Of a DNA stretch of 64,000 nt, positions 39,907-55,701 are shown piece by piece. The stretch lies in NCBI GenBank assembly GCA_964019335.1, contig OZ025736.1, positions 124,001 to 188,000 on the forward strand. Direction: 5' to 3'. Position 1 is the first letter of the stretch; each line of letters starts with the position of its first letter. A model generated the notes under the pieces. It saw only the letters and a program-made list of their open reading frames with translations. It had not been told where the DNA came from and ran no database searches. Position numbers and translations under genes: made by a program. The stretch is from Diplonema japonicum (taxonomy: Eukaryota; Protista; Euglenozoa: Diplonemea).

Positions 39907-42900
39907 TCAACTCGTGCGGCGGAGGATGGAAACCACAGAGAGCTTGAGAAGGGCAGTTGCGGGGCCGTAAGAGGAGATGATAGCGAAGAGGAAGGCAAGG
40001 AGTACGACGAAGAGAAAGAGTTGGAAAGGGAACTGGAATGCAATGGGAAGCTGGAGGAACAGCTGCCGCTGTATGACCATAGTGTAGGCTACAAGCGTCC
40101 CTACGAAAAAGCCCATGATAGAGGCAGCAGTAACTAAAACAAAGGCTTCATAAATGTAAAGCTGCTTTGTGGTGAAGGTGCTGACACCCAGCGAACGCAG
40201 GATCCCGATCTCCTTGGACTGCTCGTAGATGTTAGTGTACATGGACGCCATGAGGGAGAAGAAGCACATGGTCATCGCAATCATCGTGATGACCATGAAG
40301 AACAAAGTCAGGATGTTCCCAGCCGTTCTTGCGGAAGCAGTCTCTGTCAGCAAATTCTTCGACGACACAGCCTCCGACGGCAGGTCAGGCAACATCGCCT
40401 TGCTGATCGCCACGTCAATGGCCTCCACGTCGTTCTCCGACCACCCATCCCTCAGCTTCACCACCAACCGCCAGTACTCAATCTCATCCACCGATTTCAC
40501 CTTCCCAGAGCTCAATGCCAGGTATGTAGGGATCGACACTGCCACGTCTTGCACCAACCGTGCAGGGAACTGCGACATTCCTAGAACCGGTGCTGAGTCC
40601 AATGCTGCACTTGCTCTTGCAGGCGTTAGTATCTCCACGTCATCGCCCTGGTCCTCGACTGTCATTCTGAACAAGAAGCCTTCCTTCTCCAGCTCTAACC
40701 TGTCGTGGGATACTTGATTCCAGTACAGGGATCCTATCACAGCTCTGTCGGTGGACCATCTCGTGTACAGTTGATTGCTGAGTGAAGAGACGTGGCTCCC
40801 GTTTGATTCGTGGACGTTCATGAAGCTGTTGTCTGTCACTGTGCCCCACAAGTTTGGAGACACTGCCTTCGTCCGCACAGGGAACTCCTTGTACCTCCCT
40901 ACGGATGTCAAATCCTCGTCGTCGATTCCTGAGTAGTCCTCTAGTCTGGTGCCGACGTACCCCCAGTCTTCCACTGTGCTTGTGTTGGACAGAACTGATT
41001 CAACCCTTTCAGCCGTCCGCCAGTTTAGTGGCAGCCTTCCTCCCTCGATTGTCATCGACCCTCCAAGTCTTTGCATCTGCTGGTACTTCACTGTTTCGAT
41101 CTGCAGCGACCACGACACATTGATCCAGATGATGAACCCCAAGCTCGCTGCGTACATGAGCGTCGTCTTCCTGTTGCGCTGTCTGTGCGAGACAAGGTTC
41201 TTCAAGATGAGCTGCCGCACCGCGTAGTTGTGCCAGAAGAAGAACACAGTCGTCAGTGTCTTCTCCAAAATATGCTCGAAATTCAGCGACAATAGGATCA
41301 GCCCGAAGAGCATTCCCAGCAGAATCCCGAAGAAGATGTAAAACAACAGTTGTATGTTGAAGGTGAGAAGTGCCAAAGGGAAGGCGTAGTAAATGAGGAA
41401 GCCGAACAAGGTGAGGGCTATTCCCAGTACAATGACGGGGATCGACACGGTCGAGCCCTCCGAGCGCTCAAATGTGAAAGTAACCGCTTTGACCTTCGAG
41501 TGGTTGGTGTCGAGAGAGTCTTGCAGGTTGAGCCCCAGCGCGTGTCTGATAGGAGCGATAGAAGCAATGAGGGGCATGACAAGCCCCACCAAGGTCGCCA
41601 TCCCTACAGCAAAAGCGTCGAGATTCACGGGAAGACTTACAAGCAGCAAGCTTGTCATTAAGCTACGCAGCACCAGCCAAATAGCAAAGGCTATAGACAG
41701 ACCTAGAGCCCATGCAGGTAAGGCGTACAGGAAAGCCTGTGTCAGCACAAGTTGTACAAGATCACTTCTCTGCATCCCCACCATCCGCAGCACACCCAAC
41801 TCAAAGGTGCGCGTCTCCACATTAATCATGAGGAGTGAGTAGATTAAAACAATCGCTAGAGCGATAAGTACCACAATCACAAGCGAGATGATGAGCCCCA
41901 AGAAAAGAGTGAAAAACCTCACTGTTCTCATGAACTCCAGCACCCCAGCCTCTGCGGTCACCTGTTGTCGGTGTTATACTTTTGTTGTCTTGCCAAACCT
42001 GATTGAAGCCGATCTGAAACAACACGTCCGCTGACCATGCGACAACGGAGTCCTGGATGGTATCGTAGTTGCTCTCCAGGTACGTTGCCCTTCTGGTATC
42101 GGGTGCCATGTTGATGCTGATCTTCGATGAGAATCTTGTGAGATCCGCCTGTTCGTGTGAAGCGTGTCTTGGCACAGTGCATACTTGAGCGAAGGCGGTC
42201 CTTTTATCATCGGGGAAGTCAGGGTGCAAGTAGCTCGACACGTGCTGTAAAAACCCCTGCTGTTCCATGAAGATGAACCTGTCGGCGTTATTGGCTAGTT
42301 TCCCCTTCACGTCGCTGATAAGGTCGAAGATGGTGACTGGCACGATTGCTGTTTTGTACTCAGCATAAGGCCACTGTGCATTTGTTGCTGTGTTGCGTTG
42401 GCATACCTCGTCGTTCGACATGCCTAGCTCGTTGTACAGACCGACCAGCTGCGGCGCCAGGTTCATCACCAGAAGGATTGTGTCTCCTTTGTTCAGCCCC
42501 AGAAGTCTTGCCAGACCACTCTCAACAAGCGCATTGCCAGGGGGCAGTGTCCCATACCCCCAGTCCCTCCCGAACCCCATGCGGTCCTCCCTCGCCGTGT
42601 CGATCACGTGCAGCTCAGTGTCCTCAATGCCGTTGCAGTACTGAGCCACGCATTCGGACAAGAAGTTGCTGCAGTTCAAATTTGAGTTGACTGGCGGTGT
42701 GTATGCCCAGTTCAAGGGCTGTGTCTCAGTTGTGATATTCGTGCACTGCGCGGGTGCTGCTGCATAGATGGCGCGTGTGAAAAGCTCAAAGCGTGGCGAG
42801 TGGTAAGAGTACTCGTCGCCAAGCTGAGCAAGGGAGTTGCTGAAGATACGGTAATCGAGGGTTCGTGAGTTGGTCATCTCCGATCCTGGTGTCACGAAAA

Positions 42901-43321
42901 GATCGCGCTCACCGTTTTCGACTTCGGCAAGCCTCAGAAATACAATAGGCATGTTGGCCAGCGTGGTGATGAGAAGGGCTACAGTGAAGACAACAAGGAA
43001 GCATGAGCATGTCCCTAGACAATAGGAGACTTTTCGCTTCCGCATTTCACGCCACGTGAAATCCACGAAGACACCGTACTAGTGTGTGTTGTGCAATGCC
43101 CTATCCCGCACACCTTATACTTCAGAGCTAGGAAGCTCTGCTTTGCATCAAACTCTGATACAGCACGCTTGAACCTTTCCATCTTTGGGACATCTTCTGT
43201 CTCTTCATCTGAGTCACCTGTCATTGTTGTGGTGTATTGTGCGCAACAATAACATACCTGCTTGCGCGATCTGTTCCTTCAGCGACAACAGTCTACCGGC
43301 TCCTGGTCCCTGCGAGGACAT
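39907..43321 (-). CDS. FtsX/MacB-type ABC permease with two FtsX domains
   Basis: Motifs VETRTFELGVLRMVG, NLVSHRQRNRKT and NIYEQSKEIGILRSLG. Introns at 43218-43257, 43079-43113, 42149-42184 (in-frame) and 41962-41998; the likely ATG is at 43321. Confidence 0.88.
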
Positions 43322-43533: not shown

Positions 43534-46500
43534 TCACATCCCAGGCTCAACGTCTTGGCGTGCCATCTCGAGGAGCATCTCGTCGTCGAAGTACTTGTTG
43601 ATGCTGACGTTTTCGGCCATTCCCTTCCGCCTCCTCGTCTTCACCATGTAGTCGCGGGCAAGGAAGTGCGGCTGGCTGGGCTCCAGAGGCCTAAGGACGA
43701 TGTCCCTGTCAAGCGGGTCACCAGGTACGATGGACCAGTGATCGAACACAGACTGAATGAAGGCCTGCCCCTGCGTGTGAGTCCTCAGGTCTGTCTCCAG
43801 ACCGAAACTGTCCATGATCGGCACGTAGCCCTTAACTACGTACAAGGGCGTCCCCGGTTTCCCCTCGTCGCTCTCCAAGTTACCCCTCCTCCTGGCCATG
43901 ATGGTGTAGATCGCTGCGATGCAGTCCACAGGTGTAACTATCTCCACTGCGTAGATGGGCTCCATTAATCGAGGGTTTGCGAGCAAGAATGCCGAGTAAG
44001 CTACCCTGCGTGCGGTGGGGATAATCTGTCCGCTCCCCTTGTGGATGGCTTCCTCTGCCACGGACGCGTCCATGAGCTGCGTGTGTTGTGTTTCTCACTC
44101 TAGCATCATACCTTGAACTTCACACCCCTGATGCGCTCATCACAAAGTGGTCCCTCTCGTGTCCCCCACTGGAAGCCCTGCACTACGGAGTCCTTGATGC
44201 TAAGCAGGCCTGGGCGGTCGACCTGATTTTATGTTGTATTGCTTTGCAGTAAAAATACATACCTCAGAAGGAATAGTGTCGTCAAGCAGAACATTGGGGC
44301 CTTGAGTGTCGGGGCCGAACCTGTGTAGGGTGTATGGAACAGATTTGATGTGCATACGCCCACACAGAACGAGCTGCCAGCGTGTCCCAGCCAAACTCAT
44401 TCTCGAAGTACATCCTGACGGTCTTCTTGCCCATGTCCAGGCTCACGGCTGTGTTTGTGTGACATGAATACATTCGTACATACCCTTCTTCTCAATGGCC
44501 GTCGCCAAGCCCTTCTCCAAAGGCTCTGCCATCATCGCGATCTTGTTTTTCTTGTTCGGTGTTTCCGCAAAGCACTTCATTGCCGACGTCTCGATCACCG
44601 TCTCACAGAAGGTTGTGACGGGGTCCGCCACCTTCACCTCGACATCCTCCTCAGTGTACATCTTCCTCAGATCATGCATGATGCAATCCAAGTGAATCTC
44701 GCCGGTCCCAATCACAACATGCTCACCACTCTCCTCTTGCTTCACCTGAGCCAGAGGGTAGGTTTTCTCAATCTTTCGCAGTCCCTCCACCATCTTCGGC
44801 AGCTCGCTGGGTGACAGTGGTTCCACCGCGATCTTCACCACTGCTGAAGTCGGGAAGCTCAGGCGGCTGAAGACACGTGCGTTATCGTTCTTCGTACTGC
44901 AGATGGTTGCTGTCTTGATAATCGTGTTGTCAACACCCTCTATAAGCACCCATGACCCTGCAGGCGCACTGTCGATCTCAATCTTATGGCGGCCCTGTAT
45001 TGTAAATTGTTATTCACGAGCCACCTCAGTCATACCTGTGCAAGCCAAAGGCGCTGTGTTTCGGCAATGGCCACGTCCTCAGGGTCGTCTTCTGTGTACG
45101 ACTCACCTAAGACACGCACTTGCGAGTCCGACTTCAGCACACCGGACATCACTCTGCCGTAGGCGTCGAAGGTTGAGGCGTCATTTCTGTGGAACAGTTT
45201 TGTAATGTACACCATGAGTTCACCGTCCTTGTCGCACTTCAGCATGGACTGGGCGGTAGGGTCACTCATGGACCCTGTGTAGAGCCACGGCACCCGCGAC
45301 TGTGCCGAGTCAACGGGGTTGGGGAAGGCCTCAACGCACATCTCTACGAACCCAGATGGGTTCTCGAAGAAGCGTGACGCCACTAACTTCAGAAGCGGCT
45401 CGGCATCTAAGCGCTGCTCGTACCTGAAGAGGTGCACGCCTAGATCGTCGACTGTCTTCTTCAACTCTTTGCCTTCCTCGCTTATCACCTTCCCAAATAT
45501 CTTGTAAAGAGGTTCCAAGATGAATGTAACGAATGATATCTTGTCGTCGTTGTCCTCCTTGCTCCTGCTGAACTTGCGAGTCTCCTCGCTGTAGTAAATG
45601 TCGCCCCACAGTCTTTTGCTAAACCTGTCCACGTCAAACGATCCCCCGTAGAAGTCCCGATAGATCCTTGCAAAGGACTTAACAGTGAAGCTGAACCCGT
45701 ACCTCCCAGACGAGAAGCAGACGTTGCCCTGCTCAGGGCTGAAGCGCGGAGGGCGGCTGTAGTTGGGGTGGAGAGGTGTGTATTCAGAGATGAAGGTGTT
45801 GAGCTCACCGATGACGTGCTGTATTTTGCGGAAGGCGTCGTGGGGAGGAAGCTTCAGTTCTAGTATGAGTCTGTCCATCTTGTTGAAGAGGAGGACAACA
45901 GGGAGGCCCTGCGACAGCACTTGGCGCAGGATCTGCTTTGTGTTCACCATGACACCCTCAACGGCGTCAACGACAAGCACTACACCGTCGCTGATGGCGG
46001 TGCTGGCGCAGACCTCGTCGATGAAGTTGACGTGACCCGGGGTGTCGAACATGTTGAACAGGTAGTTCTTTCCTTTCTCGCTCTCCAGCAGAGTTGAGAC
46101 AGGTGTAGGCTTAATAGAAATACCCCTATCCTGCTCGTCGAGTCTGATGTCGGTGTACCTGCCCGTCTCGTTCAGCAAATAGTCCATGAAGGTAGTCTTC
46201 CCGTGCCCGAGATGCCCCGCTAGTGAGACGTTCCTGATAAATTTCGGCTCCTTCATAAGGTGAGTGATATAATCGTCCTGCGATCCGAGCTTCTTCCCCT
46301 TCTCCTTAGTTGCCGTGTTGAAGTTCTTCTCCACTTTCGGTGCGATGATCGGCTTTTCAATAGGCTGTGCGTCCTCTTCGCCCACTACTACTTGCACGTC
46401 TTCTCCGTACACCTCTTCCGCATCGGGGTAGTACTTCTTGTCTTCATGCAGCACGATCGCACCCTCACCAGGTACCTTGTCCACATCCATTTCCTCCTCT

Positions 46501-46610
46501 TCTTCTTCTTCATCTGATGACGACGAGGACGATGAGGGGTCTGACTCCGCCTTCTCACTTCCCTCGATCTCTCCTATGAAATTCCCGAACTCATCATACT
46601 GCCCGTCCAT
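43534..46610 (-). CDS. SNU114: U5 snRNP GTPase SNU114/EFTUD2
   Basis: Motifs [39 protein letters not shown] and [16 protein letters not shown]. Introns at 44995-45035, 44449-44483, 44321-44357, 44223-44262 and 44077-44111. Confidence 0.97.
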
Positions 46611-47021
46611 GTTGGCGGCCACCCACCTGCGTGTTTTAGGGAAACTGTATAATGGCTTTTACGTATCGTGGAAACAACGGCTTTCAGTCAGTTGTAACAA
46701 CAACATGGAAGATGAAGAGAAAATTGAATTGTGTTGAGGAGGTAAGGTGCCATAGCAATTCCATCCCACTTTGCAAGAAAAGGTTTAAGAAGACGAAGGT
46801 TCCACTGTCAGTAAAGACTGTCACAGTTCCCTCGCTTTGACTCACACCAAAGAAAAAAAAGGGGGGGGATGAAAGAAAAAAAGGAAAAGGGGTAAGAGAA
46901 CTTAAGTAAGCCCTTCTTGCGTGCGGTTCCTGGGGTGCTTGCACATCGATGTCACCTGCTGGAGTGGATGCTTTCATAACTAGGTGCTGGGGGGGAATAA
47001 GAGGCAAGGTATCACTGCTGA

Positions 47022-48740
47022 CTACGCGGTGGGGTCAGGGTACACCCCCACAGCTTCTATTAGCATCATTGCTATGGTATCAGTTTCAGCAAAGGCAGGC
47101 AGAGCCAAGCCCATACGCGCGGCCCACTTTCTCAAGCAGTCATCTGATGCGTTCTGTGAATAGTGTTTTGCTATCCCATAAGCATACCTGGTAGGCGCTG
47201 TATTCAGAAGGCAGCTCGTGTGCAACAAGTGGGTCTTCCTCCGGGGGCACCGGTGTGAGGTTGATTGGTTTCAACGCTTTTTCCGCGTACGGCAGATTCA
47301 AGAATGCTACCTTGATCCTATCATTCACAGAACCTCGCACGCGACCCAGCTTCCCGTTTAACTGTGAGAATCGTGACTTCTTAATCCGAGCATACCGTAG
47401 CAGCACTGACTAGACCTCTCGCTTCCACCAGCATGTTCACTGGGTATGCAGGTGGGGCCTTTGGTGTTTCTGTCGTAGGTGCATTCACTGGTACAGTTGC
47501 CTCGAAGCTCTCTGGCACCCAGTCTGCCCCTTCAGACTCCAATCGGTTTATTGTTGTTTTGGGTTCGCTGAACTGCTTTTGTAGGAGTTCCGCGTTGACT
47601 TCGTACGCAGAGAACGCTGAGTTCGATATCTTTGTCACCGGCACTGTGATGGGACCCTTGCCGAAATCCACTACCACTGCTTGCCCGTTGCTAGACCACC
47701 TTAAGAACAGACCTGCCTGGTACTCGGTAGTCGATACCGTGACACGCAGTAGTGCCCCGGACATCTTTTTGTTCAGCACCTCGAGCGGACAAGTAGCCTT
47801 TATTTGCAAGAGCTTACGGCGTGGCACCCAACGCCTCTTCAGCTTGTCCAAGTCGTCTTGCTGAATGGCCGTACGCTGCTTCTTTGGAGTGGGCCCACCA
47901 CAGCTGTCGTCGAGTTTTCTTTTGGCCGGTTGCGTGTCGGGCTGCCTGTTAGAAATATCATGCTCAGCATGTGCTACGACAGCACTTGCCACTTGCTTGA
48001 GGACTTCCTCCTTATCGGGGTTCCCCGTTGCCTGCATCTTGTGAGTGTAGAGACGCGACTGTTCCAAAATGTGCCGCCACTCCGTAACAACATCAGGGCT
48101 CGTTGCGTGCAGGCCCCTGTGAGTGTTTTGCTAGATTACTATAAGAATACCTGAGCCCTTTCGTTTTGAGAAGCAGTTTCAGCACTGCGATACTCCCTAT
48201 GTGTTTTACTAAACGAGGACAGTAAGCCGTGAGTCGCCTGTTGAGGTACTCCGACAAGGTATTGGCTTGGCCTTCGAGGAGCTCGAGAGCTTCAAAGGTA
48301 GGCATGAGGGGGTGCATAAGAGCTGGGTTTGTCCTCCCCTTGCTGTTTAGCCGTGAGATAACTACTTTGTTGACCATTGGTGCGCACATGGCCCGTACCT
48401 CGCTGGAGCTGTAGTCATCGACCAGTGCAGCAGATATTGCCTGTGTGAGGGCAGCTTTAGCTCCTGCATCTATCGTTTTCTTTGCACCCATGATTCTTGC
48501 TACCTTAGCATATACAAGAGGGTCGGGCAACACCGTAGCAAGCTCGGGGAACAGCGGACTGTACTGCTCTACGACGAGGTCTGCCTTACACATGCCTTGT
48601 GCTTGGATCTCTGTCAACTGCCATAGACATTCTGAAAATAACTGGAACTCTGTGCCCTCTGTGTCCATAAGCTCGGGCTCTCCCTGAGCGGGTAACTCCT
48701 TAATCGCTTTTGCAAGTGCATCATAGTCAGCAACGGGCAT
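47022..48740 (-). CDS. Fusion protein: Prp31-like NOSIC/Nop region + Plus3 domain + SH3-like (GL..LNG) module
   Basis: YSPLFPELATVLPDPLVYAKV and RLTAYCPRLVKHIGS...KLL...KGL are Prp31/Nop-like; VPRRKL...GALLRV...ISNSAFSAYE is Plus3-like; LVEARGLVSAATLNGKLGRV...ALKPINL is the SH3-like module. Three 34-nt introns (48117-48150, 47362-47395, 47154-47187) join four ORF pieces in frame. Confidence 0.8.
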
Positions 48741-48817
48741 GGCGTTCGCTACCTTTTGTGTGATACGCAGAGTCGACTGGTAATAAGAATGAATAACTCC
48801 GTGTAAATTAATCTAGC

Positions 48818-51800
48818 TTATGGGTTCCCTGGGGCTGTCAAGGGGTTGGCTGTGCGATGGAGAAAACCTAGCAACTTCTGACTTGCCATTTCGTCGACAG
48901 ACCACAAGTAAAGTGACCAGTCGCCTGCCTTACGGGGCTTAGGTTTATAAGAGTGGATAACAAAAGCAGCGGTGCGTGTTGGGTTCACCACGAACCCCAC
49001 CGAGCGTTCGTCCTGTGTGCGTGTACTTACTTCAAGAAGGCATACTTGAGAAGCAATCTCGGCAACGTCAGCTAGCGAGCACCCTGCATGGAAATCGGAT
49101 ATCTCCACCTGCTGCGCCTCGGCGACGCTGTGTGTTGCCAAGTAGAATGGCCTGTGCACGGCGGAACTGCAGGTGGCCACGGGTCGTTCTGTTCCAGGTT
49201 CTTCTGATTGTTCGCTGGAAGGCTGCACCTGGGAACGTTGGGAATGCACACATCTGTTCGGGTCAGGTGGGTCAACAATACAACGCATGTCTGTGCTCTT
49301 CCAAAGGAAGCCCGCAGCCTCGTGCACACCATGCAGGGCACAGTAAAGCAGAAGCGAAGGCAGCAGGTAAGTCACAACATCATCCTTGGATGCATAGAGC
49401 AAAACTATGGCCGCTGCAGAAGTAACATCCAATGCATACAACAACAGCGATGCCTGCGCAGTTCCATACGGCCTCGCTGTGACAAGTAACAAGAGGTATC
49501 CCAGCAAGAAGGCAAGACACCATGAAGTTAACCGCCGTGCAGCTGCGAGAGAAACCAGCGCTGTGCGGAAGGAAGCAACGCACTGCCACCATGCTGGGGC
49601 GTGCTTGCTCCAGATAGAACTCGTGTTAGTGTGTCGCGTGCAAGTCAAGCAAATAACACAACATAAAACTGTCAGCACGCTAAGAGCCACAGGCATTGAG
49701 TAATCAAAACAAGGTGTCTCAGTGCGATGTTCAAGTACGCTAATTTTTCGCACGGTCCTGCATGGCCCCAGCCTGTCCGCAAATATCCATATAATTGGCA
49801 CCACTAGCACGTGGTTCGCGCTGATAAGTAGTATCTCTCTCTTGTGCTTGTCGTCTCGTGCCTTTGCTACAATCATCACTGCCAGGGCACCGGCTATCAT
49901 GCTCTCCGCATGTTCGGTGTTGTCAGTGATGCAATCAAAGCCAAGGTCTCTCTTGGGGGACGCCACTCTTCTTGGTTGGTACAGCCAGAGCACACCGCAT
50001 GCTAAACAATACACGACACCAGCACATACCAGGACACAGGTAATGTCGATCATTTTATGCCGTGAAAAGTCACTCGGCAGGAGGCACATCGCGAAGTGTG
50101 ACATCCCACCTATGCTTATAAGGTAGAGAAGTTCTGCTTCATCACCAACGCGAGGAGCGAGATTATGGTAAGAAGGATACAGCAGCATTAAGGGGGGCAC
50201 TAAGAAGCCAACGTTCAACAACAAGAAAATTATATTGAGCACGATGCTTGAATAGTATGCGGACGCAAGCAGCAGAGCCACGTAGACAGCTACCGCGGCT
50301 AAGACGCACAATGCAGCAACTACAAGAGAAGGGCATTGTAGGCAGTGTCCCCCAAGAGCAGATCTGTGGTCTCCAGCACATTCCCCACAAAGAGGCCCCT
50401 GAGTGCTTTCAGTGCAGAACGGGTCAATGCCTAAGCATCTTTCCCTGAAGTAACATTGTTCAGGCATATCAGTACCTTCTCTCCACCAACCCTGTTGTAC
50501 AGAAGTTTCTGTAGACCCATTGCACACCAACCCACGAGGGCATTCCACGCACCCCGAGTCAGCATCGTACAACAGAGTGTCGCTGCAAAGCCGCAAGGGC
50601 AGCCCGAAAGATGTATGGACGCCCATGGCAGCTACGACCACGTTATAGACAGCGGCAGAGGGTGCTGGGTATCGAGCAGTCAGGGTGCACACACCCTTTA
50701 TTGCCGTTGTGTTTAGCAAGACCCATTTTGTACATGTGTCCGTGCACTTCTCGACCCAAGCATTACAAGAGCCAAGAACCGTGTTGCCCCATTTGTCAAC
50801 GAGTGTGAAGGCTGTTGTCAAGGAGTCCGTGTTGTGGGTAGTCTCCATCCGCTGCAGGCCATTGACAGGGCCAGGATTTACCTCCAGCATGAAACTGCAC
50901 TGCATAAGATCTCCATGCTCGGTCGCAAGATTGAGGTCTACAGTCTGGCGTCCCGACAATGTCATTGGCACCGTTGCGTAGAAGGTATTTGGCATGACAG
51001 GTGACGGAAAGGCATTGTATTGAGCGACAGGCGTCACCACTGTGACCTTGCGAATAGTGAGGTCGATATTTGTGAACCCGTAGTGCGCCAGAGCAGTGAT
51101 TGTCCAGTTCGTCACGCTAGCAGAAATATTTCTCAAGATCTGCCCACAGGTCACGATGTACCCGTCCAGCGACACGATGCGGAGTACTGGTTGGTGCACA
51201 TCCAGCAGCACGACACTAGGTGGATCCTTCGGGAACACCAGACATCCTCCATGTGCACTGGGATGGCAAACCTTAACAGAAACCTTCTGAATTCCTAGAG
51301 TCAGCGAAGTATTCGGAACGATACACTCAAATAGCAAGAGACTGATTGAGTGCCCCTTCCATTCGTCAGGTCCAACTAAGCAACTGATGCACCCCGGGCA
51401 CTTCCACTCAGTACCGACGAGTGCTCTCACTATAATAGGACTGGGGACTTTCGCAACAGGACCGGATACCAAATCTAATGTTTGGCCACTTTCAAGTTCA
51501 TCGCAACGGGTGCCAGTCACATCATCTACACACTTGCAGGAGCATGTCCCGGTTGCTGTTTGGTGGAACTCTCCCCAAGGTTGAGAACAGTAATCACTGG
51601 TAACTATGCACGCTCCGTTGCACCACGCGTAGCCTTCCTTGCACTTCGGGATGAATGTAGGTTCGGGTGACAGAGTTATCTGCACATCATGGGCATCAAA
51701 TGAAAGCGACAAAAATTCAATAATCATAGGGAGGGCATGAACCACATCGTCATGCGTCATATTGATGGGTGCGGCGATGCCGAGCACCCACATGGCAACG

Positions 51801-54800
51801 CCGCACAGTGGACAGGGCACGCTGAGAAGTTGTGCAAATCTAGAAGTGTCACAAGGGTCTAACAGAGAAGTGTCCGCTGCTGCTTGAGGCACCACGCACG
51901 AGTCTTCCAACACAACTCCGAAACCGCTCGCGTTGAGATCCTCTGCAAGTGTCGTAATGTTAACCTCATCAGGAGAAACGTACTTGCCTAAAGAGACGAC
52001 TGCCCTCCACCAGTTATCAAAAGTAGTTGTCATGCCACAATCAGCGGTACTGTCTAAGTTGCCTTCACAAGTATCACAATGAGCACCTGTCCAAAAATCA
52101 CGACACAAGCAGACACAGGCACCATCGGCTGCACGTACTTCGAGGGCACGGCCATGACAGTCTGCTTCAACTGTGCACAGCCTGCACGTGGGGTAGTCCA
52201 CACGATCCCCTGCACATATATTACAATCAGAACCTGAATAGGAATCCGGGCAAAGCGAACAGTCATCAGCGGTCCATCTATTCATACAGGTGCACACGCA
52301 GGTCTTCGCATCGTACGAAGTTACAGAGACGGACCTGGCGTTGCAATGTGTTGATGTGTTGCAGGCGCTACATTCTGGGTAGTCTATATAGCCGTAAGCA
52401 CAGTTATTGCACTCTGTATTATAAATGTTTTTACATGTTTCGCAATTCCTGCCTTCCCATTGATCATGGCACAAGCAAAGGCAAGCTACTTCAGGTTCTG
52501 AAGTGAGAGGTGCCGTGTAGTCCCGAAACGCAGCGTATGCTCTGCCATTACACAATTCAAGTGGACAGCTGGAACAGTGAGGGTAGGCAACCAGGCCATC
52601 AGTGCATCTATTGCAATGCACACCACCGTACGGTTCTGGGCACGCATCACAAAGTTCACCTGTCCAGTGGTTTGCACAGCTGCACACGCACGACATATTA
52701 GCACTATCCCTCTCAACACTCACTGCATGATCATTGCAGTGTGTAGTGTTGCTGCATTCAACACAAGTCGGGTAATCCACACCAGAAGCACACGCATCAC
52801 ATGTATCTGTATAACGTTCGTCACACACGTCGCAGTCACCGCCCGACCACATGTCTCTGCACCTACACATACATACATCATCGACAACAGCAGCTGCACC
52901 ATGACCATTGCAATGGACGTCATCACTACAAAGAGTACATGCAGGAAAGAAGGCCCTCCCATGCGCGCATGCATTGCAGTCAACATTGTAAATAACATCG
53001 CATATCGCACAGGCACTCCCCTGCCACATGCCCCCGCATGTGCACACACAACTCTCCATCTCTGCTACGATATGTTCAGCGTGGCCACTGCAGTGTGTTT
53101 CATTCGTGCATTCCACACACGAAGGGTATTGTATCCTGCCAACCTCACATTTGTCGCAGTCAGGCCCGTCATAAACTTCTGGGCATACACTGCAGTTCGG
53201 GCCTATCCATTGATGCTCACACTCACACAAACATCCAGACGGAAGCGTCGCCACGGATCTTGCGTGAGACGAGCAATCCGTGGACACGCTGCAGGTGTAC
53301 TTTAAGCTGCATGTTGGGTAATTTTCATGATCCGGAGCACAGGCAGCACACGTAGTTTGCACATAGCGGTCAGGACATACGCCGCACGCTGCACCCACCC
53401 AGCTGTCCGTACACTCACACCTGCACGTACCGCCATCTTCCCAAGAACGCAAGGCATGCCCAGAACAGTGCACCTCCAGTGAGCATGCTATGCATTCAGG
53501 GTAGTTGACACGGTTCGCCGCGCAGGAGTCACAAGATGTTTGGTTGAGCTCTGCCCTGCATGAAGAACAGGCACTGCCCTTCCACTGGGCAACGCACTCG
53601 CATTGACAGGTAGCATTTTGCACGTAGCACAGCTTTGTTGCTGTTGATATGCACTGACAATCGAGTTCAGCATCGAATCCTTCAGGGCAAACGTCACACT
53701 TTTGTCCTGACCAATAGTTGGCGCACTCACAAATGCAAGAACCTTGTATTGCAGTAACAGTTCTAGCGCCACTCGTGCAGTCAGTACCAACATCGCAAGG
53801 GCGGCACACGGGGAAGTCAACGGCATTCTGCACACAACGGGAGCAATCCTCGTCGATGCTGTAGGACGCAGGACAGAAGTCGCAGGTAGGGCCTGACCAA
53901 AAGTTCCTACATTTACACAAACAGCTTAAGCTATCAGTACTAGCTGCAACGTCTACAGCATGCGAACTGCAGTCTGAAGCAACATTGCACTCCCTGCACG
54001 AGGGGTAGCCCACGAAGCCAGAGCTGCACGTGTTGCAGTCTGCACCGCCGAAAGGCATTGGGCACTCGTCGCAACTGACGCCGATCCACTGGTTCGGGCA
54101 CTGCGAACAGATACAACGTGTTCGATTCTGGTCACTGGTCACAGCAGGCACTCCATGCACGACAAGGCATCGTAGATCTTGCAGCGAAACGCATGCTGTG
54201 CAAACAGGATAGTTGATTCTCCCAATCTTGCAATCGTTGCATGTGTCATGGTCATATGGCCCCGGGCACACACTGCATCCCATAGCGGACTGGGGCACGT
54301 GGGTACCAGTCCACATCCCGTGACACGCACATTCACAGTACGGCCCTGAGTCCTTGCTAACTAGATCTCCGTTATATGAACAGTGTTTTGGTTCGCACAT
54401 TTCGCACTTGGGAATACCCCCGTATGTTAGTGGCGCGCACTTATCGCAGGTAGCACCAATTCTGTCAGCACTGCACGTGCAGACGCAAGTAGTGTGGTCG
54501 GAGTTGGGTGTCACCTGCACAGCACGACCGTTGCAGTGGAGCAAAGACGTGCATTGGGTGCAAGTGGGGTATGATATCCTACCACTTGCACACGAGCTGC
54601 AAGTTTGCTGGTTGTAAATAAGAGGACACGAGTCGCAGTTGGATCCAGACCACTGGTCGATGCAGACGCAAACACAGAGTGACCCGTCGCCTTTTACAGA
54701 AGACGCTCTGTTGAAGCAGTCGGCGGCGATGGTGCATGCGATGCATTGGCCTTCAACTCTTCTGAAGGTGGGTTGGCAGTCGGAACAGGTTGCACCTGTA

Positions 54801-55264
54801 AAGCCGTCTTTGCAGATACAAGTACAGGTGCTTGTCGTGGGGTTGAAAACAGCTGCCGTGGTTGCCGTTGGTACACAGTCGATTGCAGCGTCGCACATGA
54901 CGCGCGAGAGGCAGAGAGCATCTGTCTGCGGTACGTAAGAGTAGACCGGGTGCTGCCCGTGACCTACTTGGTTAAAACTCCAACCAAGAAGAGATACCGC
55001 CGAAACTGCGTCCACGTTCATGTTGCACAATCGGAGCGTACTCCAAAAGATGATCGACAGGCAGCGGTCGTTGTCCAGTGTCTCGCATGCCACTGCGCAC
55101 TCATCGAGGTCGCTGACTTCCTTGCTAAGGTAGTTGAACCTGTCGTGCTGTGCATCTAAGCAAATCCCATTACCTACTGTAGCCCAGGCGTCTGCTTTTC
55201 CGAGACCATGTACCTTCGTAGGAAGCGTGGTCAGGGCTGCTGCGCTAAGCAGCTGCCACCACAT
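48818..55264 (-). CDS. Large Cys-rich receptor-like protein: signal peptide, PAN/Apple-like domain, EGF/laminin-EGF repeats, multi-pass TM C-terminus
   Basis: 2148-aa ORF with many C.GHA...C.C.C...W.G..C..C units, CPRGLVCNG...GWWR...C...GPLCGEC, and a hydrophobic C-terminal region. Confidence 0.88.
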   Translation of the reverse strand: MWWQLLSAAALTTLPTKVHGLGKADAWATVGNGICLDAQHDRFNYLSKEVSDLDECAVACETLDNDRCLSIIFWSTLRLCNMNVDAVSAVSLLGWSFNQVGHGQHPVYSYVPQTDALCLSRVMCDAAIDCVPTATTAAVFNPTTSTCTCICKDGFTGATCSDCQPTFRRVEGQCIACTIAADCFNRASSVKGDGSLCVCVCIDQWSGSNCDSCPLIYNQQTCSSCASGRISYPTCTQCTSLLHCNGRAVQVTPNSDHTTCVCTCSADRIGATCDKCAPLTYGGIPKCEMCEPKHCSYNGDLVSKDSGPYCECACHGMWTGTHVPQSAMGCSVCPGPYDHDTCNDCKIGRINYPVCTACVSLQDLRCLVVHGVPAVTSDQNRTRCICSQCPNQWIGVSCDECPMPFGGADCNTCSSGFVGYPSCRECNVASDCSSHAVDVAASTDSLSCLCKCRNFWSGPTCDFCPASYSIDEDCSRCVQNAVDFPVCRPCDVGTDCTSGARTVTAIQGSCICECANYWSGQKCDVCPEGFDAELDCQCISTATKLCYVQNATCQCECVAQWKGSACSSCRAELNQTSCDSCAANRVNYPECIACSLEVHCSGHALRSWEDGGTCRCECTDSWVGAACGVCPDRYVQTTCAACAPDHENYPTCSLKYTCSVSTDCSSHARSVATLPSGCLCECEHQWIGPNCSVCPEVYDGPDCDKCEVGRIQYPSCVECTNETHCSGHAEHIVAEMESCVCTCGGMWQGSACAICDVIYNVDCNACAHGRAFFPACTLCSDDVHCNGHGAAAVVDDVCMCRCRDMWSGGDCDVCDERYTDTCDACASGVDYPTCVECSNTTHCNDHAVSVERDSANMSCVCSCANHWTGELCDACPEPYGGVHCNRCTDGLVAYPHCSSCPLELCNGRAYAAFRDYTAPLTSEPEVACLCLCHDQWEGRNCETCKNIYNTECNNCAYGYIDYPECSACNTSTHCNARSVSVTSYDAKTCVCTCMNRWTADDCSLCPDSYSGSDCNICAGDRVDYPTCRLCTVEADCHGRALEVRAADGACVCLCRDFWTGAHCDTCEGNLDSTADCGMTTTFDNWWRAVVSLGKYVSPDEVNITTLAEDLNASGFGVVLEDSCVVPQAAADTSLLDPCDTSRFAQLLSVPCPLCGVAMWVLGIAAPINMTHDDVVHALPMIIEFLSLSFDAHDVQITLSPEPTFIPKCKEGYAWCNGACIVTSDYCSQPWGEFHQTATGTCSCKCVDDVTGTRCDELESGQTLDLVSGPVAKVPSPIIVRALVGTEWKCPGCISCLVGPDEWKGHSISLLLFECIVPNTSLTLGIQKVSVKVCHPSAHGGCLVFPKDPPSVVLLDVHQPVLRIVSLDGYIVTCGQILRNISASVTNWTITALAHYGFTNIDLTIRKVTVVTPVAQYNAFPSPVMPNTFYATVPMTLSGRQTVDLNLATEHGDLMQCSFMLEVNPGPVNGLQRMETTHNTDSLTTAFTLVDKWGNTVLGSCNAWVEKCTDTCTKWVLLNTTAIKGVCTLTARYPAPSAAVYNVVVAAMGVHTSFGLPLRLCSDTLLYDADSGCVECPRGLVCNGSTETSVQQGWWREGTDMPEQCYFRERCLGIDPFCTESTQGPLCGECAGDHRSALGGHCLQCPSLVVAALCVLAAVAVYVALLLASAYYSSIVLNIIFLLLNVGFLVPPLMLLYPSYHNLAPRVGDEAELLYLISIGGMSHFAMCLLPSDFSRHKMIDITCVLVCAGVVYCLACGVLWLYQPRRVASPKRDLGFDCITDNTEHAESMIAGALAVMIVAKARDDKHKREILLISANHVLVVPIIWIFADRLGPCRTVRKISVLEHRTETPCFDYSMPVALSVLTVLCCVICLTCTRHTNTSSIWSKHAPAWWQCVASFRTALVSLAAARRLTSWCLAFLLGYLLLLVTARPYGTAQASLLLYALDVTSAAAIVLLYASKDDVVTYLLPSLLLYCALHGVHEAAGFLWKSTDMRCIVDPPDPNRCVHSQRSQVQPSSEQSEEPGTERPVATCSSAVHRPFYLATHSVAEAQQVEISDFHAGCSLADVAEIASQVCLLEVSTRTQDERSVGFVVNPTRTAAFVIHSYKPKPRKAGDWSLYLWSVDEMASQKLLGFLHRTANPLTAPGNP

Positions 55265-55701
55265 CGCGTACCATGTGCACCTGCAGACTGCATTGAGGGG
55301 TCAAGTAAAAGAAACGAATAAGTGCCGCAGGATGGGTTGGGTACCTATGATTCTTTAAGGGGAGAAAGAATGGAAAGACGGCAAAAGACACCTTCTTGAT
55401 TTCTTTAGTTGTGACCCCTTGCATGCTCGCTGCCATGCCTCATTTCCAACATCTCTAAAATAGATGTTGCGAACTATGGAAAAAAGGAACTATGAACCCC
55501 GTCATCAAAAATAAAGCAAAACAACCAGGAAGGGGAACCCATGAGTGAGAATAGGGGGGGGGGGGGGGGGGGGCAAAGTCCATCCTGTCACTCGGTGATC
55601 CTCGAACGCTGTTGCGGAGAGACACGCGGGGTGACAAGGTGCACTCTCAAACAAGGTAAAGGGTTGAACTAAAACGCCCATGGTCCCTTCCTGCTTCCGG
55701 T

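Follow-up and report, generated by a model that had tools for sequence, protein, structure and literature searches.

A conserved diplonemid protein joins a Prp31-like Nop region to predicted Plus3 and KOW/SH3-like domains

Results

Gene structure and transcripts

The window examined here is a 64,000-nt stretch of the Diplonema japonicum genome (GenBank assembly GCA_964019335.1, contig OZ025736.1, positions 124,001 to 188,000), and all positions are counted from its first nucleotide. Between the gene for SNU114 (downstream) and a long gene for a Cys-rich repeat protein (upstream), the minus strand carries a gene whose four exons, joined via three 34-nt introns of the form GTAT..CACAG, give a 538-aa frame with a single terminal stop (Table 1). 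A first-pass annotation of the sequence had proposed that four ORF pieces are joined in this way, and the transcript data bore this out: in run X8, one 3583-nt contig skips all three introns, and a complete transcriptome ORF of 538 aa in EukProt (P0001) is the same protein. All three intron joints were also found in run X1, spread over two contigs, and one joint was found in run X2; X8, X1, and X2 are termed RNA-type because their contigs skip introns. Runs X3 and X5 were unspliced. Within the window, the pattern GTAT-N-CACAG was seen 15 times versus 2.5 expected, a count attained in none of 100 shuffles. Introns in the window are of the type given for diplonemids in the available text of PMC12621601, namely GTAT-type introns of 33-41 nt with A-rich 3′ ends; like the spliced leader and the homologs, they indicate a diplonemid.

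Table 1. Features of the fusion gene and its immediate neighbors (positions in the window)
Feature	Positions	Strand	Evidence or match
Trans-splice acceptor AG; mRNA start 12 nt before ATG	48753..48754	-	leader-type loose end, one X1 contig
Exon 1 (aa 1-197): N-terminal helix, coiled coil, tip, start of Nop domain	48151..48740	-	Pfam Nop E 3.1e-10
Intron 1, 34 nt, GT-AG, within Nop domain	48117..48150	-	joints in X8 and X1
Exon 2 (aa 197-437): remaining Nop fold, basic linker, Plus3, acidic/Pro linker, beginning of KOW	47396..48116	-	
Intron 2, 34 nt, within KOW barrel	47362..47395	-	joints in X8 and X1
Exon 3 (aa 438-495): remaining KOW and conserved PxPPEEDP tail	47188..47361	-	
Intron 3, 34 nt	47154..47187	-	joints in X8, X1, and X2
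Exon 4 (aa 496-538 and stop): predicted two-helix unit, aa 499-530	47022..47153	-	
Prp31-like region, aa 1-255, spans intron 1; aligns to human Prp31 59/60-311	47942..48740	-	VIA Z 18.7, rmsd 3.5, 226 aligned
Predicted Plus3, aa 282-388; invariant R296 (codon 47821-47819) in register with RTF1 R366	47543..47863	-	VIA Z 12.2, rmsd 3.0, 104 aligned to 2bze
Predicted KOW/SH3-like barrel and tail, aa 418-482, spans intron 2	47227..47455	-	VIA Z 8.3, rmsd 1.8, 57 aligned to Spt5 KOW6-7
SNU114/EFTUD2, 962 aa, five introns of 35-41 nt, own leader at 46627; downstream neighbor	43534..46610	-	
Long Cys-rich repeat protein, one 33-nt intron near 49013-49045; upstream neighbor	48818..55300	-	

At the 5′ end of the transcript, a loose end of 20 nt was seen at 48753 in one X1 contig, and the identical sequence is present on SNU114 at 46627 in X8; we take it to be the euglenozoan spliced leader. 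Among the 14 coding differences between strains that were listed, 10 were synonymous and 4 non-synonymous (pN/pS 0.12, binomial p 2e-4), where 14 stands for at least 14, given that X1 and X2 span part of the gene and that the counts come from the differences listed. For SNU114, 19 synonymous and 2 non-synonymous differences were among those listed. The gene is therefore expressed as one spliced and trans-spliced mRNA, and it is under purifying selection. The fusion of the domains does not depend on the intron calls, because both domain junctions fall within exon 2.

Predicted fold of the whole protein

An AlphaFold2 model based on a nine-row alignment had a mean pLDDT of 78 and a pTM of 0.44; the single-sequence model was too poor for use (pLDDT 37.5). 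Two Nop56/58-like rows of alignment A4 had their C-terminal halves placed wrongly over the Plus3 columns, and the model was confident there nonetheless. Four ordered blocks were predicted (approximately aa 30-255, 280-380, 420-482, and 490-530), with disordered linkers between them. In a comparison with 48,161 PDB representatives, the model scored highest against Prp31 (Z 17.6, 15.8, and 13.5), Nop5/Nop58 (Z 13.3-12.5), the Plus3 domain of RTF1, and KOW6-7 of Spt5; Foldseek gave the same fold matches, and a viral fold library gave none at E 0.001 or better. Three folds, Prp31-like, Plus3, and KOW, are thus predicted, of which the Nop part was recognized by Pfam as well as by fold and the Plus3 and SH3-like parts by fold. 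Conservation among four orthologs was uneven, with invariant positions amounting to 8 of 146 in the coiled coil and tip, 1 of 32 in the first half of the Nop domain, 0 of 48 in its second half, 16 of 99 in Plus3 (R296 among them), and 27 of 63 in the KOW barrel and tail (aa 420-482), the best-conserved part of the protein.

The Prp31-like region

The N-terminal region had been annotated as a Prp31-like NOSIC/Nop segment, and this was upheld. Pfam Nop (PF01798) matched aa 44-201 at E 1.5e-10 (profile positions 4-142 of 228), with scores over the curated cut-off in all four orthologs, and the fold match to Prp31 reached Z 18.7. By homology of its coiled coil and Nop domain, the protein belongs to the Nop superfamily. 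Prp31 chains held VIA ranks 1-10 (Z 14.4-18.7), and Nop5, Nop56, and Nop58 reached Z 13.9 at most. Truncated Prp31 crystals were level with Nop56/58 (Z 13.5-13.8), and the margin of Prp31 over Nop58 leans largely on the N-terminal helix, where pLDDT is 46-55. By sequence profile E-values, Prp31 and Nop56/58 were nearly tied; the top single-sequence match was Nop58, and P0003 and P0004 each placed Prp31 first. The Trp pair of the Nop56/58 motif is absent from all four orthologs, which instead read as the Y-x-x-x-FPEL of Prp31. Relative to Nop56, Nop58, and archaeal Nop5 of box C/D RNPs, the coiled coil and Nop fold are shared (Z 12.5-13.9), but rmsd was higher (about 5.2-6.5) and the fibrillarin-binding NOP5NT domain (PF08156) was not matched in any of the four orthologs, with only about 30 residues lying ahead of the coiled coil. 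By fold and motif, the Nop part likely descends from a duplicate of Prp31.

The model gives the fusion protein the same N-terminal helix, coiled coil, and tip as Prp31/PRPF31 of the U4/U6.U5 tri-snRNP (PF01798 and PF09785), along with the larger part of the Nop fold, which was predicted with high confidence up to aa 252. The alignment, however, stops at Prp31 residue 311 (domain limits of human Prp31 as given in the accessible part of PMC7065041). Prp31_C (PF09785) was not matched at E up to 10 in P0001 or up to 5 in P0002-P0004, and Plus3 and KOW stand in its place. In the accessible portion of PMC4605303, K243 and A246 of human Prp31 contact 15.5K, and the Prp31 coiled coil binds Prp6 and Rvb1/2-Rsa1. 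K243 and A246 align to A201 and P204; Lys occupies the first position in none of the four orthologs, and Pro occupies the second in three. Throughout aa 176-255, G182 is the sole residue invariant among the four orthologs, and the net charge is non-basic in three of them; the Hemistasia ortholog retains more of the Prp31 pattern. The invariant residues of the coiled coil and tip are Y60, F64, P65, L67, P72, Y77, R169, and P175. Because K243 and A246 are changed, the second half of the Nop domain is unconserved, and Prp31_C is missing, the U4/Snu13 binding that the first-pass annotation had cited for Prp31 is doubtful here and was likely lost. Residues 262-278 form a basic stretch that resembles an NLS.

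The predicted Plus3 domain

The middle segment had been assigned to Plus3 from a motif pattern, and the predicted fold agrees with this assignment: it matched RTF1 at Z 12.2, with further RTF1 entries at Z 9.4-11.8. Pfam PF03126 (Plus-3) gave no match for the 538-aa protein itself, and full-length P0003 scored 16.5 bits versus a cut-off of 27. Plus-3 was, however, the sole family matched by any of the domains of five aligned relatives (two of the five, best E 9e-4). Searching the PDB with a profile of Plus3 alone gave no sequence at E up to 10, the Atlas search gave no usable Plus3 match, and no other Rtf1 region was matched in the 538-aa protein by Pfam or fold search; in the available text of PMC13289920, diplonemid Rtf1 homologs likewise have no detectable HMD. 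Compared with Rtf1 and the trypanosomatid RTF1L of the PAF1 complex, the Plus3 fold is shared but identity is 14-17% and the score lies below the Pfam cut-off; in Leishmania RTF1L, Plus-3 lies at the N-terminus (PMC8544896, available part).

R296 is invariant in all five aligned Plus3 domains and, if the alignment is ungapped, corresponds to RTF1 R366 by the chain-range offset (282/352, 283/353, and 285/355). In the part of the preprint that was available (bioRxiv 10.1101/2020.04.15.044131), RTF1 R366 (S. pombe R227) is needed for the preference for pSpt5 and also affects nucleic-acid binding, and Plus3 can bind ssDNA and RNA.

Sequence searches turned up just one further Plus3, in a PPP phosphatase (P0006/P0010; E 6e-5, 30% identity over 106 aa). 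In the EukProt entry from Rhynchopus humris (P0010), the Plus3-like domain occupies aa 18-123 at the N-terminus of the phosphatase and was missed by Pfam; a D. papillatum entry is linked to DIPPA_27442. The motifs W-x-P-R and V/I-S-N are shared with the fusion protein, but here Plus3 is joined to a phosphatase and has no Nop or KOW part. A nucleus-assigned protein with Plus-3, WW, and Metallophos domains is reported from D. papillatum in the accessible data of PMC12697944. The Plus3-bearing phosphatase could target phosphorylated elongation factors. Since Plus3 is also found on a phosphatase, it is a mobile module in this lineage that need not come straight from Rtf1, and because the only other Plus3 found by sequence sits in a PPP phosphatase and not in Rtf1, the predicted reader may have another target.

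The predicted KOW barrel and the C-terminal unit

The SH3-like module annotated at the end of the protein is predicted to be a small five-stranded beta barrel of KOW/SH3-like type (fold match over model aa 418-476, best Z 8.3). Many rows among KOW/SH3-like barrels (Spt5 KOW6-7, NusG, PsaE) scored Z 6.5-8.1; the fold is generic, and the match implies no specific kinship to Spt5. In the Atlas search, all leads for KOW were under 0.9. A KOW-like module also was observed elsewhere: in a metagenome scan that returned at least one KOW-only locus, two tandem copies (47-52% identity) end an unrelated 415-aa ORF (L001:941-1285), which presumably resembles an alpha/beta hydrolase. The module seems to be widespread and has no Pfam family. 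The two-helix C-terminal part, predicted in the AlphaFold2 model, is found in two of the four orthologs, and we take it to have an HeH/SAP-like pattern; exon 4 gave no Pfam match and no PDB sequence match at E up to 10.

Orthologs in diplonemids

A full HMMER scan with exon 2 as the query returned seven matches. Besides the protein itself, these were a Plus3-like piece, two repeat proteins (P0005 and P0007) that were dropped as unrelated, and three full-length relatives: DIPPA_20908 of D. papillatum (540 aa), a transcript from Hemistasia (585 aa), and an ENA protein (502 aa). Across P0001-P0004, the order Nop, middle domain, C-terminal barrel is the same at about 31% identity. A word-indexed search (alignment A3) recovered only P0001 together with a pair of Nop56/58-like proteins, and because it missed known orthologs, the family size is a minimum.

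According to the available part of the D. papillatum genome paper (PMC10161547, supplement), DIPPA_20908 is a "hypothetical protein" in the diplonemid-gain orthogroup OG0019654, which is represented by a single copy in each of Dpap, Sspe, and Hpha and is absent from Rhum (Rhynchopus humris) and from the other 26 taxa. Separate entries for Prp31 (DIPPA_20812), an Rtf1-like protein (DIPPA_17113), Nop56, and Nop58 appear in the accessible supplement of PMC12697944. Therefore, at least in D. papillatum, the fusion protein is an extra paralog that coexists with canonical Prp31 and an Rtf1-like gene, and not a replacement for them.

The literature searched, mostly without subscription papers, contained no paper pairing "Plus3" with "Nop domain", and its main texts did not name DIPPA_20908, its accession, or its orthogroup. 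A 2026 survey describes Plus3 without HMD in diplonemids and, in the part available, mentions no Nop fusion (PMC13289920). The earlier remark that no known protein combines Nop, Plus3, and SH3-like domains thus agrees with the literature searched, in which no report of this architecture was found. The architecture is real, conserved, and apparently undescribed, and is assembled from known parts; its function is a prediction.

Genomic neighborhood

The fusion gene had been noted to lie about 400 bp from SNU114, and 412 nt separate its stop codon from the SNU114 ATG (46610). The distance holds, but the adjacency is weak evidence for a shared function, because each gene receives its own leader and both sit in a one-strand cluster of unrelated genes. 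Of 34 ORFs of at least 200 aa in the window, 26 are on the minus strand, and the remaining 8 overlap minus-strand ORFs. The Pfam matches within the cluster (8036-62087, minus strand) are functionally unrelated and comprise an MTPAP-like nucleotidyltransferase, aminopeptidase P, two MFS transporters, a kinase, an RPE65-family oxygenase, and PDZ, PPR, PX/Vps5, UBX, Sey1, WD40, eIF2B-epsilon-like, and MIF4G plus RRM proteins. An FtsX-like permease domain (E 6e-25) was also found in this eukaryotic gene cluster (39907-43078, minus strand); an intron-type pattern at 42374-42406 is on the plus strand and mismatches the strand of that gene. Within the available text of the respective sources, the genes of diplonemids are arranged in unidirectional clusters that are probably polycistronic (PMC10161547), and trypanosomatid clusters are not limited to one pathway (PMC8544896). 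In D. papillatum, the tag of the representative EFTUD2, DIPPA_04193, is far from DIPPA_20908, where tags are not positions and the orthogroup has eight members.

The upstream ORF encodes 2160 aa, with numerous Cys-rich repeats and a C-terminal part that is hydrophobic. It gave no Pfam match at E up to 10, and of its 18 tested strain differences, 10 were non-synonymous. An X8 contig covering 46707-50424 runs 1.6 kb into the 3′ part of this gene, with its 33-nt intron spliced, and ends without a leader; either a polycistronic precursor or a join made in assembly could account for it. The remainder of the upstream gene is covered by separate short X8 contigs. In EukProt, the D. papillatum model P0008 (2484 aa) fuses the upstream Cys-rich gene with the ortholog, whereas NCBI has the 540-aa protein alone, and the P0008 fusion is likely a prediction error. 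For the window, a fusion of this kind was ruled out by the stop at 48818 and the separate leader at 48753. The Cys-rich gene appears to adjoin the ortholog in D. papillatum as well, and because P0008 indicates the same neighbor there, gene order can persist without a functional link.

Discussion

The reading that we tentatively favor is that a duplicate of Prp31 became a nuclear phospho-reading adaptor, possibly connecting elongating RNA polymerase II to Prp31-type partners. The Prp31 copy would have lost U4/Snu13 binding and gained the predicted Plus3 phospho-reader and the predicted KOW barrel. Plus3 would dock via R296 on phosphorylated Spt5-type repeats of the elongating polymerase, the retained Prp31 coiled coil might hold Prp6/tri-snRNP or RNP-assembly chaperones at nascent RNA, the KOW barrel with its conserved tail would add a further contact, and the adaptor would be located in the nucleus. 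Consistent with such a role, which we hold to be possible, are the single mRNA, the purifying selection, the shared domain order, the ranking of Prp31 in the fold search, the invariant R296, the kept coiled-coil residues, and the NLS-like stretch. Counted against it are the KOW part, which is best conserved yet mobile, the zero copies in Rhynchopus humris, the near tie of Prp31 and Nop58, and the finding that DIPPA_20908 is not among the rows listed in the available part of the D. papillatum proteome table (PMC12697944, supplement). An adaptor coupling Pol II elongation to a snRNP had been suggested in the first-pass annotation. The domain calls behind that suggestion hold and it stays the best reading, but U4/Snu13 binding and the adjacency to SNU114 have weakened as support. 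A more specific form, in which the protein is a diplonemid coupling factor whose Prp31 mimic docks into the tri-snRNP or its assembly line while Plus3 tethers it to phosphorylated Spt5 on Pol II, is unlikely. If true, a single polypeptide would link elongation to spliceosome assembly, in organisms that both cis-splice very short introns and trans-splice polycistronic RNA.

The protein may instead be a phospho-reading scaffold without a splicing role, a somewhat unlikely explanation in which the Prp31 part would serve as a helical stalk and Plus3 and KOW would bind partners specific to diplonemids, for instance alongside the Plus3-bearing PPP phosphatase in a nuclear kinase/phosphatase circuit. 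The lack of any invariant position in the second half of the Nop domain, the phosphatase-borne closest Plus3 together with the nucleus-assigned Plus-3, WW, and Metallophos protein, and the mobility of the KOW module argue for it, but eight invariant coiled-coil and tip residues and a fold kept over Prp31 59-311 exceed the needs of a bare stalk, although those residues may be fold residues. That the Nop domain binds a lineage-specific RNP (the SL RNP, a variant K-turn RNA, or another L7Ae paralog), with Plus3 placing this RNP on nascent transcripts by binding single-stranded nucleic acid or pSpt5, seems quite unlikely; the RNA-binding face should then be conserved, and the near absence of invariant residues and of basic charge in aa 176-255 argues against this, despite the confident Nop fold, the more Prp31-like Hemistasia ortholog, and the ability of Plus3 to bind nucleic acid. 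More improbable still is a decoy or regulator that would rival true Prp31 or Nop56/58 for Prp6 or R2TP/NUFIP via the coiled coil, Plus3 adding phospho-dependence. A kept coiled coil with changed Snu13-contact positions, and canonical Prp31, Nop56, and Nop58 encoded separately in D. papillatum, would fit a decoy, but the strongly conserved KOW barrel and tail would be left unexplained. Although the fold matches point to exactly Prp31 and Rtf1, it is highly improbable that the protein is the organism's working version of either with extra domains: Prp31_C was matched in none of the four orthologs, the Snu13-contact positions are changed, and D. papillatum has the ortholog in addition to its separate Prp31 and Rtf1-like genes.

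The Nop superfamily of eukaryotes is generally taken to comprise Nop56, Nop58, and Prp31. The protein described here adds a further branch, diplonemid-only in sequence searches, in which RNP binding was apparently traded for reader domains. With the D. papillatum ortholog identified, and with tagging and degron methods reported for that species in the parts of the literature available, the family can be approached in a member of the diplonemids, which are abundant ocean protists. If the protein is an adaptor, it would offer a handle on the coupling of splicing to Pol II in a lineage whose transcription is polycistronic and little controlled at promoters; should it be a scaffold alone, it would still be a clear case of the reuse of a splicing-factor duplicate.
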